From Lentzea sp. (GTDB taxonomy: Bacteria; Actinomycetota; Actinomycetes; Mycobacteriales; Pseudonocardiaceae): a DNA stretch of 64,000 nt. The position numbers and the translations under genes are program-made. Positions 4,739-59,849 of the stretch are shown here, in pieces (position 1 is the first letter of the stretch; every line of letters begins with the position of its first letter). The notes beneath the pieces are model-generated. The model did no database searches. It was given only the letters and a program-made list of their open reading frames with translations, and was not told the DNA's origin. The stretch is from NCBI RefSeq assembly GCF_036380075.1, contig NZ_DASVFL010000067.1, forward strand, positions 27,676 to 91,675, given 5' to 3'.

Positions 4739-5590
4739 TCAGCAGTGGTCGAACGCGTAGTCCCTACCGCCCGCCGCCACGAGCAGCCGGTCGCGCAACG
4801 TCGTCGTCGCGGGCGTCTCCGGATCAGCGCACACGTCGCGGAAGGTGCCGCGCAGGTCGTCGGTGTACTCGATGTCGAGCACGTGCGTCCCGTACACGCC
4901 GGTGTAGGACGAGCACTCGCTCCAGCGGTGGCACTCCTCGGTCACCGCGAAGTCGAAGCCCACCTCGGACCGCCCGCGGGCCGCCTGCTCCGCGGAGTTC
5001 TTCTGCCCGATCGCGAGGCCCTTGCCGTGCGCCCGGTCCGCCAGCGCCTTCGCGTACGCGAGGTTGTCATCGGCCGTCAGCCGGCCGTCCGACCGCAGGA
5101 ACGAGTCGAGGTTGTCGATCTCCACGGCCTGGAACCCCTTGGCGGCGCACCGGTCGACGGTCGCCCCGAAGATCGCCGCCAGCTCACCCCTTGCGGCGGG
5201 CGTCGAGGTGTCGAGCAGGAACTCGTCCGGCCACTTCGGATCGTTGACGGGCTTGCCCGACGAGTCCTTCAGCACCAGGTGCGCGCGCTCGGTCAGCCAC
5301 ACGTCCCGTTCGCCGGGCTGCGACTGGAACCCGTTGACGTAGCAGACGGAGTAGAGGCCGGGCGCGGGTTCGGCGGTGCTGTCCCGCACCACGAGCGTGA
5401 CGCCGCCGGGCGGCGGGTAGGCGGCGCCGAGCTGGTAGTCGAGGACCGCCTTCTCCGGTGGGAGCCGGACGCCCTGTGCGGTCGGCGGCGCCGAGGGCTT
5501 CGGTCCCGGGGATTCGGACTCGGGTTCGTCGGCGCAGCCGGAGAGGACGAGTGCGGCGAGTGCGATGCCGAGGAGAGAACGGAGACGCAC
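4739..5590 (-). CDS. Endo-alpha-1,4-polygalactosaminidase-like lipoprotein (GH114)
   Basis: Lipobox LSGC; DYQLGAAY, CYVNGFQSQPGE, KGFQAVEIDNLDS, QKNSAE, DFAVTEEC. Confidence 0.88.
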   Translation of the reverse strand: MRLRSLLGIALAALVLSGCADEPESESPGPKPSAPPTAQGVRLPPEKAVLDYQLGAAYPPPGGVTLVVRDSTAEPAPGLYSVCYVNGFQSQPGERDVWLTERAHLVLKDSSGKPVNDPKWPDEFLLDTSTPAARGELAAIFGATVDRCAAKGFQAVEIDNLDSFLRSDGRLTADDNLAYAKALADRAHGKGLAIGQKNSAEQAARGRSEVGFDFAVTEECHRWSECSSYTGVYGTHVLDIEYTDDLRGTFRDVCADPETPATTTLRDRLLVAAGGRDYAFDHC

Positions 5591-5626
5591 GGAGAACTCC
5601 TCGGTGGAAATAGTCGGCTCACGACG

Positions 5627-5660
5627 AAGCCCCGGCCAGACCGAAGTCTGACCGGGGCTT
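5627..5660 (-). terminator. Intrinsic terminator downstream of the tRNA pair
   Basis: AAGCCCCGG-CCAGAC-CGAA-GTCTGA-CCGGGGCTT hairpin just past the tRNA-Arg 3' end. Confidence 0.75.
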
Positions 5661-5666
5661 GTCCAG

Positions 5667-5739
5667 TGCGCTCGGCAGGATTCGAACCTGCAACCTTCTG
5701 ATCCGTAGTCAGATGCTCTATCCGTTGAGCTACGAGCGC
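5667..5739 (-). tRNA. tRNA-Arg(ACG), CCA not encoded
   Basis: Reverse complement GCGCTCGTAGCTCAACGGATAGAGCATCTGACTACGGATCAGAAGGTTGCAGGTTCGAATCCTGCCGAGCGCA; anticodon loop CTACGGA. Confidence 0.97.
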
Positions 5740-5781: not shown

Positions 5782-5871
5782 CGGAGGCTCCGGGATTTGA
5801 ACCCGGGATGGGGGGTTACCCCAAACCGCATTAGCAGTGCGGCGCCATAGACCAGACTAGGCGAAGCCTCC
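5782..5871 (-). tRNA. tRNA-Ser(GCT), long variable arm, CCA not encoded
   Basis: GGAGGCT/AGCCTCC acceptor stem, anticodon loop CTGCTAA, GGTTCAAATCC T-loop. Confidence 0.97.
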
Positions 5872-17462: not shown

Positions 17463-17547
17463 CGGAAGCGGAGGGATTTGAACCCCCGGACGGTTGCCCG
17501 TCTCCCGCTTTCAAGGCGGGTGCATTCGGCCGCTCTGCCACGCTTCC
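17463..17547 (-). tRNA. tRNA-Ser(TGA), CCA not encoded
   Basis: GGAAGCG/CGCTTCC acceptor stem, anticodon loop CTTGAAA, GGTTCAAATCC. Confidence 0.97.
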
Positions 17548-55398: not shown

Positions 55399-55995
55399 TC
55401 AGATCTCCACGCCCGCCCACGACCGGCACACCCAGCCGTCGCCGTCGGAGTCCAGGACCACGACGCCGGTGTTCGGCAGCAGGTTCTCCGCCAGCTCGAC
55501 CGGGATGTTGGAGGCCAGGGCCAGCGCGCCCATCCGTCCGGCGCCGCCGTGGGTCACGACCACGACCGTGCCCTCGTCCCGGCGGATCGACCCGATGGCG
55601 CCGAGGAACCGGTCCAGGACCTGCTGCCCGGTCTCGCCGTCGCCGGGGAACGCCACGTCGAGCGCGCCCTCCGCCCACTTGATCACGGTCTCGAGGTAGG
55701 TCCGGTACGCCTCGGTGTCGTTGCGGCCCTCCAGCGAGCCGACCTGGATCTCGTGGACGCCCTCCAGGATCTGGACGGGCAGGCCGAAGCGCTCGGCGGT
55801 CGGGGCCGCGGTCTGCTGGGCGCGCAGGCCGGTGCTCGCGTAGACGGCGGTGACCTCCTCGGACGCGAGGAGGTCGGCCAGCTCACGTGCCTGCTTGCGC
55901 CCCAGCTCCGTCAGCGGGGGCCCCGGCATCAGCGTGTCCAGCTTGCGTTCGATGTTCGACGCCGTCTCACCGTGCCTGACCAGCAGCAACCTCAC
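55399..55995 (-). CDS. Histidine phosphatase (phosphoglycerate mutase family)
   Basis: LVRHGET, LTELGRKQA, VTHGG. Confidence 0.93.
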   Translation of the reverse strand: MRLLLVRHGETASNIERKLDTLMPGPPLTELGRKQARELADLLASEEVTAVYASTGLRAQQTAAPTAERFGLPVQILEGVHEIQVGSLEGRNDTEAYRTYLETVIKWAEGALDVAFPGDGETGQQVLDRFLGAIGSIRRDEGTVVVVTHGGAGRMGALALASNIPVELAENLLPNTGVVVLDSDGDGWVCRSWAGVEI

Positions 55996-56882
55996 CCGCG
56001 CTCGCCCTTTCTGACAGCATCGACCCAGGAGGCGGCTGCGGCGAACTCGTCGTTGCGAGCCTCGGAGGGCTCGTGGTCGGCCTTCGGGAAGGACCCGAGG
56101 AACCGGATCTCGTGCGAGTGTCGGTGCAGCGCGGCCAGCGCGTCACCGATCCTCGGCTCTGCGATGTGCCCCTCGACGTCGATGTAGAAGCGGTACGTGC
56201 CCAGTTTGCCCTTCGTGGGACGCGATTCGAGGCCGGTGAGATTGATGCCACGCAGCGCGAGCTCCGTGAGCAGCTCGGACAGCACGCCCACCCGGTCCGG
56301 CGTGGTCACGACGACGCTCGTGCGGTCGGCGCCGGTCGGCTCCGGCAGCGTCCCCGGCCGGCGCAGCAGCAGGAACCGGGTCCGCGCGTCCGGCACGTCG
56401 AGGACGTCGGTGGCGTACTCGTCCAGCTCGTAGTGCTGCACGGCGACGGGCGCGGTCACGGCGGCGTCGAACTCGCCCCGCTCCACGGCGGCGGCGGCCG
56501 CGGCGGTCGACGACGTGGCGATCGAGGTGACCCCCGGCAGCGAGGCGGCGATCCACTCGCGGACCTGCGCCAACGCGTGCGGGTGCGAGGCGATGGTCCT
56601 GATCTCCGCCGTGCCGGGGCGGACCAGGACGCTGAACCGCACGTCCAGCACGGTCTCGGCCACCGCGACGACCGGCTCGTCGCGCACCAGGGCGTCGAGC
56701 GTGGCCGGCACGGCCCCCTCGACGGAGTTCTCGATGGGCACGCACGCGAACTCGGTGTCACCGGCGCGCAGCGCGGCGATGGCGAGCGGGATGGTCTCGA
56801 CGGGCACGAGCTCACCGTCGAACCGCATCGCGGCCTGCTCGGTGAAGGTCCCCTGTGGTCCGAAGTACGCAATGCGAGGCAC
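55992..56882 (-). CDS. pheA: Prephenate dehydratase
   Basis: IAYFGPQGTFTEQA, VPIENSVEG, SHPHALAQ, ARTRF, INLTGLESRP, LGSFP. Confidence 0.97.
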   Translation of the reverse strand: MPRIAYFGPQGTFTEQAAMRFDGELVPVETIPLAIAALRAGDTEFACVPIENSVEGAVPATLDALVRDEPVVAVAETVLDVRFSVLVRPGTAEIRTIASHPHALAQVREWIAASLPGVTSIATSSTAAAAAAVERGEFDAAVTAPVAVQHYELDEYATDVLDVPDARTRFLLLRRPGTLPEPTGADRTSVVVTTPDRVGVLSELLTELALRGINLTGLESRPTKGKLGTYRFYIDVEGHIAEPRIGDALAALHRHSHEIRFLGSFPKADHEPSEARNDEFAAAASWVDAVRKGERG

Positions 56883-56970
56883 GCCGTGAAGAGTAGAGGC
56901 GCGAATCACGCCTGTGTCAGGGGCCGAACCTGGGTTCCGCCGGGACCGTTCGAACTGGAATGCTTGGGGC

Positions 56971-57537
56971 GTGCCCGCTCTAGCGCCTGAACTCGTGTTG
57001 TGCGCGGTCGACGAACCGATGGCGAACGCCTGGCTCGCCGTCGCTGACGGACGCACAGGGGTGCGGGTGCACCGCGGGTCGGTGCTGGACATCCCCGCGC
57101 AGGCGATAGTCAGCCCCGCGAACTCGCAGGGCTGGATGCGCGGCGGCATCGACGCCGTCTACGCCACGGCGTTCCCCGAGGTCGAGAACAACGTCCGCAG
57201 CGCGGTCCTCACGCTGCACGGCGGTGAGCTCCCCGTCGGCGAGGCGCAGATCGTGGCGACGGGCGAGACCGAGCCCGCGTGGCTGATCAGCGCGCCGACC
57301 ATGCGCCTGCCGGGCGAACGGCTGCCGGTAGACACCGTCCACCCCTACCTGGCCGCCCGTGCCGTCCTGCGGCTGTGGCTCGACGGACGTCTGGAGGACG
57401 GCACGCCGGTGCGCGACGCCGTCCGCACCATCGCGATGCCGGGGCTCGGCACCGGGGTGGGAGGCGTCGCGCCGTCCACGTGCGCCCACCAGGTCGCCGC
57501 CGCGTGGGACGAGTCGTTCAACCCGCTCCACGTGTAG
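56971..57537 (+). CDS. Macro domain protein (ADP-ribose binding/hydrolase)
   Basis: AIVSPANSQGWMRGGID, SAPTM, IAMPGLGTGVG. Confidence 0.92.
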   Translation: MPALAPELVLCAVDEPMANAWLAVADGRTGVRVHRGSVLDIPAQAIVSPANSQGWMRGGIDAVYATAFPEVENNVRSAVLTLHGGELPVGEAQIVATGETEPAWLISAPTMRLPGERLPVDTVHPYLAARAVLRLWLDGRLEDGTPVRDAVRTIAMPGLGTGVGGVAPSTCAHQVAAAWDESFNPLHV

Positions 57538-57585
57538 TCCACATGTGCACAACCCTGTGGACAACGTGTGGACAGCTGTGGACTA
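57535..57585. promoter_or_regulatory. Cluster of five DnaA-box-like 9-mers
   Basis: TAGTCCACA 57535-43, TGTGCACAA 57544-52, TGTGGACAA 57556-64 (perfect TTGTCCACA on minus strand), TGTGGACAG 57567-75, TGTGGACTA 57577-85. Confidence 0.75.
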
Positions 57586-58077
57586 CTGCCGTGGCGCGAC
57601 CCATCGTTCGAGGTCCAGCTCGTCCGTGATGGGGATGCCGAAGTCCCCCACCGCCGGTATCTCCGGCTTGAGCTTGCGCGCCTCGCGCACGGCGTCGGGT
57701 CTGAGCACGGCCAGCTTGAACCCGCGGCGCTGGAAGAAGCGGACGGCGTCCAGGTTGTCGTTCGTGGTCGTCAGGCGCACTCGGGAGCAGCCGAGTGCGC
57801 GTGCCTGCCGAACCGCGGCGTCGACCAGCGCGGTGCCGACGCCGCGGCCCCGACGCAACGCGTCGATCGTGACGATTTCCAGTTGGTGGTTGGCCACCGC
57901 GTGGGTCAGCAGACCCAGCACGTGACCCTGCTTTTCCACGAGGAAGCCGGGCAGACTCGCGGGGAAGAACACCTCGCCGTGCGCGACGGCTGTGTGTGCG
58001 CCCCATAGCTCGAGGACCAAACGAGCGACGACTATGCGATCTGCTTCCTCGATCGGCCTTACCGAGCCTTCTGCCAT
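57583..58077 (-). CDS. GNAT family N-acetyltransferase
   Basis: LEIVTIDA, RGRGVGTALV, LTTTNDNLDAVRFFQRRGF. Confidence 0.93.
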   Translation of the reverse strand: MAEGSVRPIEEADRIVVARLVLELWGAHTAVAHGEVFFPASLPGFLVEKQGHVLGLLTHAVANHQLEIVTIDALRRGRGVGTALVDAAVRQARALGCSRVRLTTTNDNLDAVRFFQRRGFKLAVLRPDAVREARKLKPEIPAVGDFGIPITDELDLERWVAPRQ

Positions 58078-58138
58078 GACAAGAACTGTCTCAATCCGAG
58101 TCTCACTCAGGAACAGCCATTCGACGTACGGTGGATTC

Positions 58139-58756
58139 GTGCCAGTGCGCGTTTTGTTGGTTGACGATCACGAAGTGGTGCGCAGAGGACTGCGCGAGAT
58201 GCTCGACGACGAGGAGGACATCTCGGTCATCGCCGAAGCCGGTTCCGTGGACGAGGCGGTTGCTCGGGCCCAAAAGATTACGCCCGATGTGGCGGTTGTG
58301 GACGTTCAGCTGCCCGACGGCAGTGGTGTGGACCTGTGCAGGACCCTGCGCGACCTGGGCATCCGCTGCCTGGTGCTGACCGCCTTCGACGACGAGGAGG
58401 CGCTGGTCGGGGCCATCATGGCCGGTGCGTCGGGCTATCTGCTCAAGCAGGTCCGCGGCCAGGACGTCGTCACGGCGGTGCGCGAAGTCGCGGCTGGACG
58501 GTCCCTTCTGGACCCCGCCACCACAAGCCGGGTACTCGAACGGATGCGCAATCCAGCCCCGGTTGGCCTCACCGACCAGGAACAGCGCGTGTTGGAACTC
58601 ATCGGTGAGGGCCTGACGAACCGCCAAATCGGTGAACGCTTGTTCCTCGCGGAGAAGACCGTGAAGAACTACGTGACGTCCGTGCTCTCCAAACTCGGCA
58701 TGGAACGGCGAACGCAAGCCGCCGCATGGGTGGCTAAACGGGGACGGACCAGGTGA
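58139..58756 (+). CDS. NarL/DevR-type response regulator
   Basis: LLVDDHEVVRRGL, VVDVQLPDG, LTAFDD, GYLLK, LTNRQIGERLFLAEKTVKNYV. Confidence 0.95.
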   Translation: MPVRVLLVDDHEVVRRGLREMLDDEEDISVIAEAGSVDEAVARAQKITPDVAVVDVQLPDGSGVDLCRTLRDLGIRCLVLTAFDDEEALVGAIMAGASGYLLKQVRGQDVVTAVREVAAGRSLLDPATTSRVLERMRNPAPVGLTDQEQRVLELIGEGLTNRQIGERLFLAEKTVKNYVTSVLSKLGMERRTQAAAWVAKRGRTR

Positions 58757-59849
58757 GCGTCGTCCCGTTCGGTGAACTCACGACGCGGAAATCGCCACTC
58801 GCCGCCTTCGCCCGTTCCGCGAGGTGCCGCAATCCGCGTTGAGTGACGCCGGACGGGATGCCGCACCCGTTGTCGGCGACTCGCAGCAGCAGGTGCTTCT
58901 CGTCGCGCCGCACGTCGATCTGGACGTTCGTGGCCCCCGAGTGCCGCACGACGTTCGACAACGCCTCGCGCAACGCCGCCCGCGCGTCGTCGGCGTGCTT
59001 GCGCGGCACGTTCGCCAGGTCGCCGGACACGTGCAGGCGCGGCGGGAACCCGAGCAGCTCGCCGGCCGTGCGGACCTCGGCCTTGATCGAGTCGTGCAGG
59101 TCGGCCGAGTCGGCGGGGTCGGTGTTGCGCAGCTCGCGGACGGTCGCGCGGACCTCGGCGATCGTCTCGTCGACCAGGTCGACCGCCTCGTTGATGCGGG
59201 TCCGGTCGGTGTTGTCGAGCTTCTTGCCCAGCCGGCGTTCCAGCAGGCTAAGCTGCACGCCCGCGCCGTAGAGGCGCTGGATGATCACGTCGTGCAGGTC
59301 GCGGGCGATGCGTTCGCGCTCCTCGTAGACCGCGACGCGCTGCCGTGCCGTGAAGCCCTCCGACAGCACCACGGCGAGCCCTGCCTGCGCCGCGAACGCC
59401 GACAGCACGTCCACGGTCTCCTGCGTGAACGGCGGCTTGTCCCGGCGCCGGTAGACCGCCAGCGCACCGATCTTGCGGTCGGAGGTGCCGAACGGCGCCA
59501 CGGCGAACGGCCCGTAGCTCCGCAGCGCCTGCGGCACGTACGGGGCGGTGCGCGGGTCGTTCGTCACGTCGTCGGCCATCACCGGCACGCCGGTCCGCGC
59601 GGCCTTGGCGGCGGCGCTGCGGGAGCTCAGCGTGGCGACGACCGGCTCGCCGCTGGACGCCTCGACGGTCAGCGTGCCGTCGTCCTCGGCCGTCGCGAGC
59701 ATGGCCAGGCCGAGGTCGGCGTCCGCGATCTCCGCGGCCGCCTCCACGACGAGCCGCAGCACGTTCTCCGGGTCTTCCAGCGCCGCCGACGTGATCTCGG
59801 TCGACGCGACGAGCACGCGCCGCGCCAGGGAGGGGTCCATGGTCCTCAA
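58734..59849 (-). CDS. GAF + HisKA_3 sensor histidine kinase (DevS-like architecture)
   Basis: ERERIARDLHDVIIQRL, REALSNVVRHS, VADNGCG, GLRHLAERA; start TTG 59849 or ATG 59840. Confidence 0.92.
   Translation of the reverse strand: MRTMDPSLARRVLVASTEITSAALEDPENVLRLVVEAAAEIADADLGLAMLATAEDDGTLTVEASSGEPVVATLSSRSAAAKAARTGVPVMADDVTNDPRTAPYVPQALRSYGPFAVAPFGTSDRKIGALAVYRRRDKPPFTQETVDVLSAFAAQAGLAVVLSEGFTARQRVAVYEERERIARDLHDVIIQRLYGAGVQLSLLERRLGKKLDNTDRTRINEAVDLVDETIAEVRATVRELRNTDPADSADLHDSIKAEVRTAGELLGFPPRLHVSGDLANVPRKHADDARAALREALSNVVRHSGATNVQIDVRRDEKHLLLRVADNGCGIPSGVTQRGLRHLAERAKAASGDFRVVSSPNGTTLTWSVPV

Follow-up and report, generated by a model that had tools for sequence, protein, structure and literature searches.

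The convergent genes for a Macro-domain protein and a GNAT N-acetyltransferase in the chromosome of Lentzea sp. (Pseudonocardiaceae) are separated by a gap of 45 bp that is filled by helically phased, near-perfect DnaA boxes. The locus lies in the window analysed here, a stretch of 64,000 nucleotides on contig C67 (NZ_DASVFL010000067.1) of a draft genome of 8.49 Mb (70.7% GC, 407 contigs), and positions given without a contig name are those of the window. The Macro-domain gene (ADP-ribose-binding type; PF01661, E = 1.6e-9) occupies positions 56914..57537 on the plus strand and forms the left convergent flank, and the GNAT gene (PF00583, E = 5e-15), at 57583..58077 on the minus strand, forms the right one. 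Divergent from the Macro gene lies pheA, encoding prephenate dehydratase (55992..57149, minus strand; NF008865, 287 bits, above the cut-off), which serves as the synteny anchor to other Mycobacteriales. The true start of the Macro gene is probably downstream of 56914, since the reading frame from that position overlaps pheA.

Five 9-mers, each with at most one mismatch to TTGTCCACA and one of them perfect, were identified at 57535-57585. Box 1 (TAGTCCACA, 57535-57543) is read on the plus strand, inverted with respect to the other four, and includes the TAG stop codon of the Macro gene (57535-57537). The other four are read on the minus strand and comprise box 2 (TTGTGCACA, 57544-57552), box 3 (TTGTCCACA, 57556-57564), which is the perfect consensus, box 4 (CTGTCCACA, 57567-57575) and box 5 (TAGTCCACA, 57577-57585), which includes the TAG stop codon of the GNAT gene (57583-57585). 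The repeat finder returned boxes 2-5 as four direct copies with start-to-start spacings of 12, 11 and 10 bp, and the outer boxes 1 and 5 as inverted arms of 10 nt with 100% complementarity. The boxes leave only 6 of the 51 bp uncovered, those that are spaced being 1-3 bp from their neighbours, and coding sequence borders the array on either side. Boxes 1 and 2 abut head-to-head, and box 2 falls within a 10-bp palindrome-like core (57543-57552) that is readable as a box on either strand. Thus, the coordinates and counts of the initial annotation, which had described one perfect and four single-mismatch boxes, four of them co-oriented at these spacings and the outer two exact inverted copies holding both flanking stop codons, were reproduced.

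The density of the boxes was compared with expectation at several scales. The whole window contains 9 matches to the motif against 6.3 expected, and five of the nine fall within the 51 bp of the array. Genome-wide, 63 perfect and 832 one-mismatch boxes (895 sites in all) were counted; a reversed control motif gave 883 sites and never more than two per 51 bp, and with ten permuted control motifs the count over that length was at most three. At least three boxes per 100 bp are found at nine places in the genome, and only the Macro/GNAT gap reaches five in 51 bp. The genome-wide scan of box density, listed in the initial annotation as a check, therefore places this gap as the densest cluster of the 8.5-Mb genome at the 51-bp scale.

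The quality of the boxes was assessed with a position-weight matrix built from the biochemically defined DnaA boxes of Mycobacterium tuberculosis (Hicks et al., PMC7738170 Table S10) and applied to all 17 million 9-mers of the genome. All five boxes score between 14.2 and 14.8 of a possible 15.2 (14.5 for box 2 and 14.8 for box 3), each belongs to the highest-scoring 4e-6 to 3e-5 fraction of the genome 9-mers, and the gap region shares first place genome-wide in the density of matrix-scored sites. The C-terminal DNA-binding domain (domain IV) of the host DnaA aligns with the M. tuberculosis domain of PDB entries 3PVP and 3PVV over 97 residues (E = 8e-41), most of which are identical, and the same box specificity is therefore expected. 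The assignment of the boxes to the DnaA type is thus borne out by an experimentally derived actinobacterial matrix and by the host protein, and occupancy of the array by DnaA would be expected on this basis.

Conservation was examined in two sets of loci, which were fetched separately and partly overlap (110 fetches). The first consists of 30 orthologous Lentzea loci with DNA identities of 80-94%, aligned for column analysis, and the second of 80 loci from Lentzea, Saccharothrix, Actinosynnema and Umezawaea collected by a GNAT protein search. In the Lentzea alignment boxes 2-5 appear as invariant blocks between which the intervening bases change, 31 of their 36 columns being invariant; in the flanking genes the same holds for only 28 of 90 third-codon positions. 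All nine columns are invariant in box 2 and in box 5, and eight of nine in box 3, whose single variable column is position 1 (T or C). Box 4 is the least conserved of the co-oriented boxes, with five of nine columns invariant; its positions 1-3 are free to change, with the classical G/A alternative seen at position 3, and its position 4 differs in one of the 30 genomes. The five variable columns were assigned to box positions 1-3, where the M. tuberculosis matrix discriminates least, and the chance of all five falling there is C(12,5)/C(36,5) = 0.002. The core at box 2 is a perfect palindrome in 18 of the 30 orthologues. Box 1 has a mean pairwise column identity of 0.43 in the same alignment and is lineage-specific, being found only in the window's genome and one relative; on that side of the array, roughly a dozen other Lentzea genomes have a different additional box, also inverted.

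In the wider set, the convergent Macro gene is present at all 80 loci, with protein identity down to 74%, and every gap holds between two and seven boxes. The core-to-core distances are 10-13, 21-22 or 33 bp throughout, near whole helical turns. The layout in Lentzea is one of four co-oriented cores spaced 10, 12 and 12 bp, and that in Saccharothrix and Actinosynnema one of three cores spaced 21-22 and 11-12 bp, box 4 being replaced by a spacer of about two helical turns; in a few genomes of the Saccharothrix type the place of box 2 holds TTGTCCACA. The five-box architecture described at first is thus not the conserved unit, which instead consists of co-oriented boxes, four of them in Lentzea and three in the Saccharothrix type. 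The GNAT gene ends in TAG at all 80 loci, including those of Saccharothrix, where a box no longer overlaps the stop codon, and the Macro gene ends in TGA at 50, TAG at 27 and TAA at 3. The gap also holds boxes in three additional GTDB genera whose GNAT orthologues are close. No boxes were found in the gap of five genomes from three more distant genera that keep the GNAT-Macro-pheA synteny, and in these genomes the flanking genes abut or overlap; the array is therefore regarded as a gain of one clade. Absence of the boxes with retention of the flanking genes, which the initial annotation had named as evidence against its proposal, is not seen inside the clade, where spacers and synonymous sites drift around the boxes, but is the state of the distant genera, which keep the genes without boxes. 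Within the clade of Lentzea, Saccharothrix, Actinosynnema and Umezawaea, the alignments indicate that the boxes are held under strong purifying constraint.

The same alignments bear on the possibility that the locus acts at the RNA level, as a bidirectional hairpin terminator, or is a neutral tandem repeat of 10-11 bp with no protein-binding role. In the window's genome the outer boxes and their neighbouring bases do fold into a hairpin of -38 kcal/mol (z = -3.2) on the plus strand and of -40 kcal/mol (z = -2.6) on the minus strand, and Tandem Repeats Finder calls an array of period 10 with 3.3-3.6 copies. However, the hairpin rests on box 1, which is missing in most relatives, and is specific to the window's genome and the one relative that shares this box; among the 30 orthologues the fold z-scores have medians of -1.2 (plus strand) and -0.55 (minus strand), and the predicted structures differ. 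A terminator scan found no canonical U-tract terminator in the gap, and a search of the window gave no Rfam match at the array. Of the initial statement that no terminator hairpin is present, the absence of a U-tract terminator stands, whereas the absence of a long hairpin does not. A conserved RNA hairpin or bidirectional terminator was rejected on account of the inconsistent folding and the lack of a U tract, so that the array does not qualify as an intrinsic terminator, and a known RNA family was rejected because the Rfam matches are three tRNA genes elsewhere in the window. A neutral repeat was rejected as well, since a microsatellite would not hold 31 of 36 columns over 30 species while its spacers change. 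Both forms of this explanation are considered highly improbable, and the conserved feature, judged from the aligned orthologues, is the sequence of the boxes and not an RNA fold.

The chromosomal position of the locus was determined in seven complete genomes (four Lentzea and three Actinosynnema), in all of which it lies 120-140 kb from dnaA, a distance of about 1.3-1.5% of the chromosome. This agrees with the location near oriC that had been proposed for it; for the window's own draft genome the distance was derived from synteny. In one complete Lentzea genome 84 perfect boxes were counted against 25 for the reversed control motif, and 21 of the 84 are in the 500 kb around dnaA. In the draft genome contig C32, not C67, carries dnaA and dnaN. 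The spacer between them (C32:~5350-5700), presumed to be oriC, has AT-richer stretches and three boxes with at most one mismatch, none of them perfect, and the box 2 variant TTGTGCACA is also present there. The boxes of the array are nearer to the consensus than those of the spacer, and the best boxes of the genome are in clusters away from the origin; an oriC likewise without classic boxes has been described for Kutzneria (PMC4210621). The possibility that the array is a second origin was ruled out, as the oriC criteria of an AT-rich element and adjacent dnaA and dnaN are not matched: GC content over 50-bp windows falls no lower than 0.56, coding sequence lies on both sides, and dnaA and dnaN are at another place in the genome. 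The initial conclusion that the array is not oriC is thereby upheld.

Clusters of boxes elsewhere in the genome were compared with the DnaA sites of mycobacteria, which belong to the same order (Mycobacteriales in GTDB) and have the same type of DnaA DNA-binding domain. These clusters are located between rplI and dnaB (C105:3243-3455, seven boxes), upstream of gyrB (C32:9128-9185), at the 5' end of or upstream of dnaX (C67:2409-2440) and between an Rv0010c-like PH-domain gene and crgA (C32:19897-19979), with others in two further gaps and in the dnaA-dnaN spacer. Five regions bind DnaA both in M. tuberculosis by IDAP-seq and in M. smegmatis by chromatin immunoprecipitation (ChIP-seq), including oriC, rplI-dnaB and Rv0010c-crgA (PMC7738170), and the gaps orthologous to rplI-dnaB and Rv0010c-Rv0011c (crgA) carry clusters in Lentzea. 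The coincidence with proven mycobacterial sites shows that prediction from boxes works in this lineage and makes another regulator unlikely as the reader of the repeats.

That a different DNA-binding protein reads the repeats, either a response regulator with a period of about 11 bp or a dimer bound to the TTGTGCACAA palindrome, and that they resemble DnaA boxes by coincidence, was nevertheless weighed. Direct repeats with a period near 11 bp are typical of OmpR/PhoB-type regulators, the genes of a NarL-type two-component system are close by and no element is conserved more rigidly than the palindromic box 2. Yet the motif is the established DnaA box and its score on a DnaA matrix derived by experiment is near the maximum, further clusters of it are found at oriC, dnaB, dnaX, gyrB and crgA, the variable positions coincide with positions of low information for DnaA, and some genomes have the plain TTGTCCACA in place of the palindrome. 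A foreign reader of the array is therefore quite improbable.

Two further clusters of the window's genome were noted. One, with three perfect boxes, is between the DUF5926/GDPD gene pair and a DUF952 gene (C67:116988-117023), outside the window and 32 kb from the Macro/GNAT array. It is conserved, and in two other Lentzea genomes (L039 and L042) its first box, TAGTCCACA, overlaps the TAG stop codon of the DUF5926 gene and a TTGTGCACA box is also present, giving a layout much like that of the array. The other, between the convergent 3' ends of the PEPCK and septum-formation-domain genes (C116:35368-35439), has three boxes with at most one mismatch and six sites above the 99.9th percentile of the matrix, and is the second cluster of the genome in a convergent gap.

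The Macro/GNAT array is not orthologous to any mycobacterial non-origin DnaA site, the flanking genes being different. It shares a chromosomal neighbourhood near pheA with the Rv3843c-sodA site (Hicks et al. 2020, PMC7738170), for which its authors report no counterpart in other species. Orthology with that site was rejected, as the array is flanked by the Macro and GNAT genes and not by sodA, the gene for the DUF4328 membrane protein and the GDPD (glpQ-type) gene; moreover, the GDPD orthologue of Lentzea is 32 kb away beside the second cluster, which places the array in the same neighbourhood but at a different site. Three genomes from a sister family have three TTATCCACA-type boxes between sodA and the DUF4328/GDPD pair, about 6 kb from pheA (L144:3182-3279, L145:15778-15877 and L146:3933-4030), and the position of this trio fits a correspondence with the published Rv3843c-sodA site. 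A pheA-proximal cluster throughout the order was considered and rejected: at the same stringency, 17 genomes from other genera and families gave no cluster of at least three boxes closer to pheA than 10 kb, the three sister-family genomes having only the looser trio.

The features assembled above are those of the non-origin DnaA-box clusters (DBCs) that are established in Escherichia coli, Bacillus subtilis, Streptomyces and mycobacteria. They comprise several predicted high-affinity boxes at high local density, a location outside oriC with neither an unwinding element nor adjacent dnaA and dnaN, a position close to the origin and a conservation of the boxes beyond neutral drift. By these features the array is a familiar kind of predicted control site, although unusually compact and cleanly phased for its kind. 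It is thus interpreted, with moderate confidence, as an origin-proximal, non-origin cluster of predicted high-affinity boxes that sequesters DnaA or modulates its activity. As the boxes follow one another at intervals of about one helical turn, DnaA protomers attached by domain IV would be placed on one face of the DNA, where their AAA+ domains could touch. At about 130 kb from oriC the array would be duplicated soon after initiation and, having better boxes than oriC, would be expected to be occupied before, and in preference to, the origin. The occupied array would then hold back or modulate free DnaA and so exert negative control on the timing of initiation.

Negative control is proposed because the origin-proximal clusters of B. 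subtilis and, according to a citation in PMC3245932, of Streptomyces coelicolor work in this way, and an effect of the array on initiation would be expected by analogy. In B. subtilis, replication is initiated early when the six DBCs are deleted, and a DBC that is put back has a dosage effect governed by how far from the origin it is inserted (Okumura 2012, PMC3245932). One of them, DBC[gcp-ydiF], is situated between convergent 3' ends, is conserved among Bacillus and has no evident transcriptional role (Ishikawa 2007, PMC2533591). Like the array, the B. subtilis DBCs are dense groups of consensus boxes outside oriC, mostly origin-proximal, and their stable binding of DnaA depends on local density and box affinity. 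The Lentzea array, for which binding and a phenotype are predicted, belongs to another phylum, has unrelated flanks and is far more compact (51 bp, boxes 1-3 bp apart). The cluster of S. coelicolor (Smulczyk-Krawczyszyn et al. 2006, J Bacteriol 188:6184), as it is presented in the papers that cite it (PMC3245932, PMC4210621), has the same TTGTCCACA consensus, is near oriC and is reported to regulate replication, but occupies a different genomic location with different neighbours.

Several observations weigh against this interpretation. Four to five boxes are few beside the approximately 900 near-consensus sites of the genome, so that pure titration would be weak and a catalytic or structural role may matter more. 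The box-less synteny within the same family implies that the array is dispensable for the basic replication control of the family. Retention of TAG as the GNAT stop codon in Saccharothrix without an overlapping box suggests that part of the conservation may have another cause. Finally, DnaA binding and a phenotype are, for the array in this clade, predictions.

The first of these observations is also an argument for a catalytic switch of the DnaA state in place of a passive sink, acting either like datA through ATP hydrolysis or like DARS through ADP release. E. coli datA and DARS1/2 are non-origin clusters that control the availability of the initiator, and datA is duplicated early. Other points in favour of such a switch are the head-to-head arrangement of boxes 1 and 2, the inverted extra box in many Lentzea genomes and the head-to-head box pairs that recur in other clusters of the window's genome; in addition, Hda and SeqA are, by the usual account, missing from actinobacteria (PMC3245932, discussion), so that DnaA would have to be inactivated by other means. 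However, the head-to-head element is not conserved, and most loci of the Saccharothrix type have just three co-oriented boxes. E. coli datA and DARS2 act catalytically on the nucleotide state of DnaA and need sites for IHF (and Fis), whereas the array, related to them neither in sequence nor in context, has no room for accessory sites or for that of a bending protein, because only 6 of its 51 bp are outside the boxes and both flanks are coding; the absence of an IHF/Fis site was judged from this space, no IHF matrix having been run. A switch of this type is accordingly thought unlikely.

The placement of the boxes between two convergent genes raises a different explanation, in which the array is a protein roadblock selected to stop RNA polymerase arriving from either gene, in substitution for intrinsic terminators for which the gap is too short to accommodate two, and any effect on replication is incidental. 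The boxes take up the entire gap and extend into both stop codons, and neither a U-tract terminator nor a hairpin conserved over the 30 orthologues is present. As Schaefer and Messer are said to have found in 1988, the complex of DnaA with its box blocks RNA polymerase at the asnC terminator of E. coli. On the other hand, a roadblock would require neither helical phasing nor a fixed distance from the origin, the same convergent pair does without boxes in related genera, where its genes abut or overlap, and other clusters of the window's genome are not between convergent genes. Selection for a roadblock is thus a doubtful explanation of the array. A combined role is equally doubtful, in which the array would be a purpose-built element of the clade whose short DnaA filament sets the threshold for initiation and at the same time provides a bidirectional transcription stop for the convergent genes, the origin boxes being degenerate and the best boxes being gathered in a few compact phased arrays about 100-130 kb from oriC. 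If true, such a dual role would couple the level of the replication initiator to read-through at the locus.

No published description of the Macro/GNAT cluster of Lentzea and Saccharothrix was found in the literature searched. The array reveals no new principle; its value lies in being a clean natural substrate, with three to five near-consensus boxes in rigid helical register and no confounding promoter nearby, in hosts that are antibiotic-producing Pseudonocardiaceae amenable to genetics, such as Actinosynnema and Saccharothrix. The control of initiation in actinobacteria is poorly understood, and non-origin DnaA sites of mycobacteria have been tied to changes of the cell cycle and to isoniazid tolerance (PMC7738170). 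The array is therefore suited to asking whether origin-proximal boxes tune initiation in mycelial actinomycetes and whether an array of DnaA stops transcription.

A few minor features of the locus and the window were also noted. Tandem duplications of ~19 bp and ~14 bp are present on the Macro side of the gap at loci L078 and L030 (Lentzea sp. CA-135723), L086 and L026; that of L078 copies the region of the Macro stop codon, and the box array is untouched by these duplications. Just past the GNAT gene are genes for a NarL/MadR-type response regulator (57992-58756, plus strand) and a GAF-domain histidine kinase (58734-59849, minus strand), and nothing ties either of them to the boxes. The three tRNA genes that are the sole Rfam matches in the window are on the minus strand at 5667-5739, 5782-5871 and 17463-17547.

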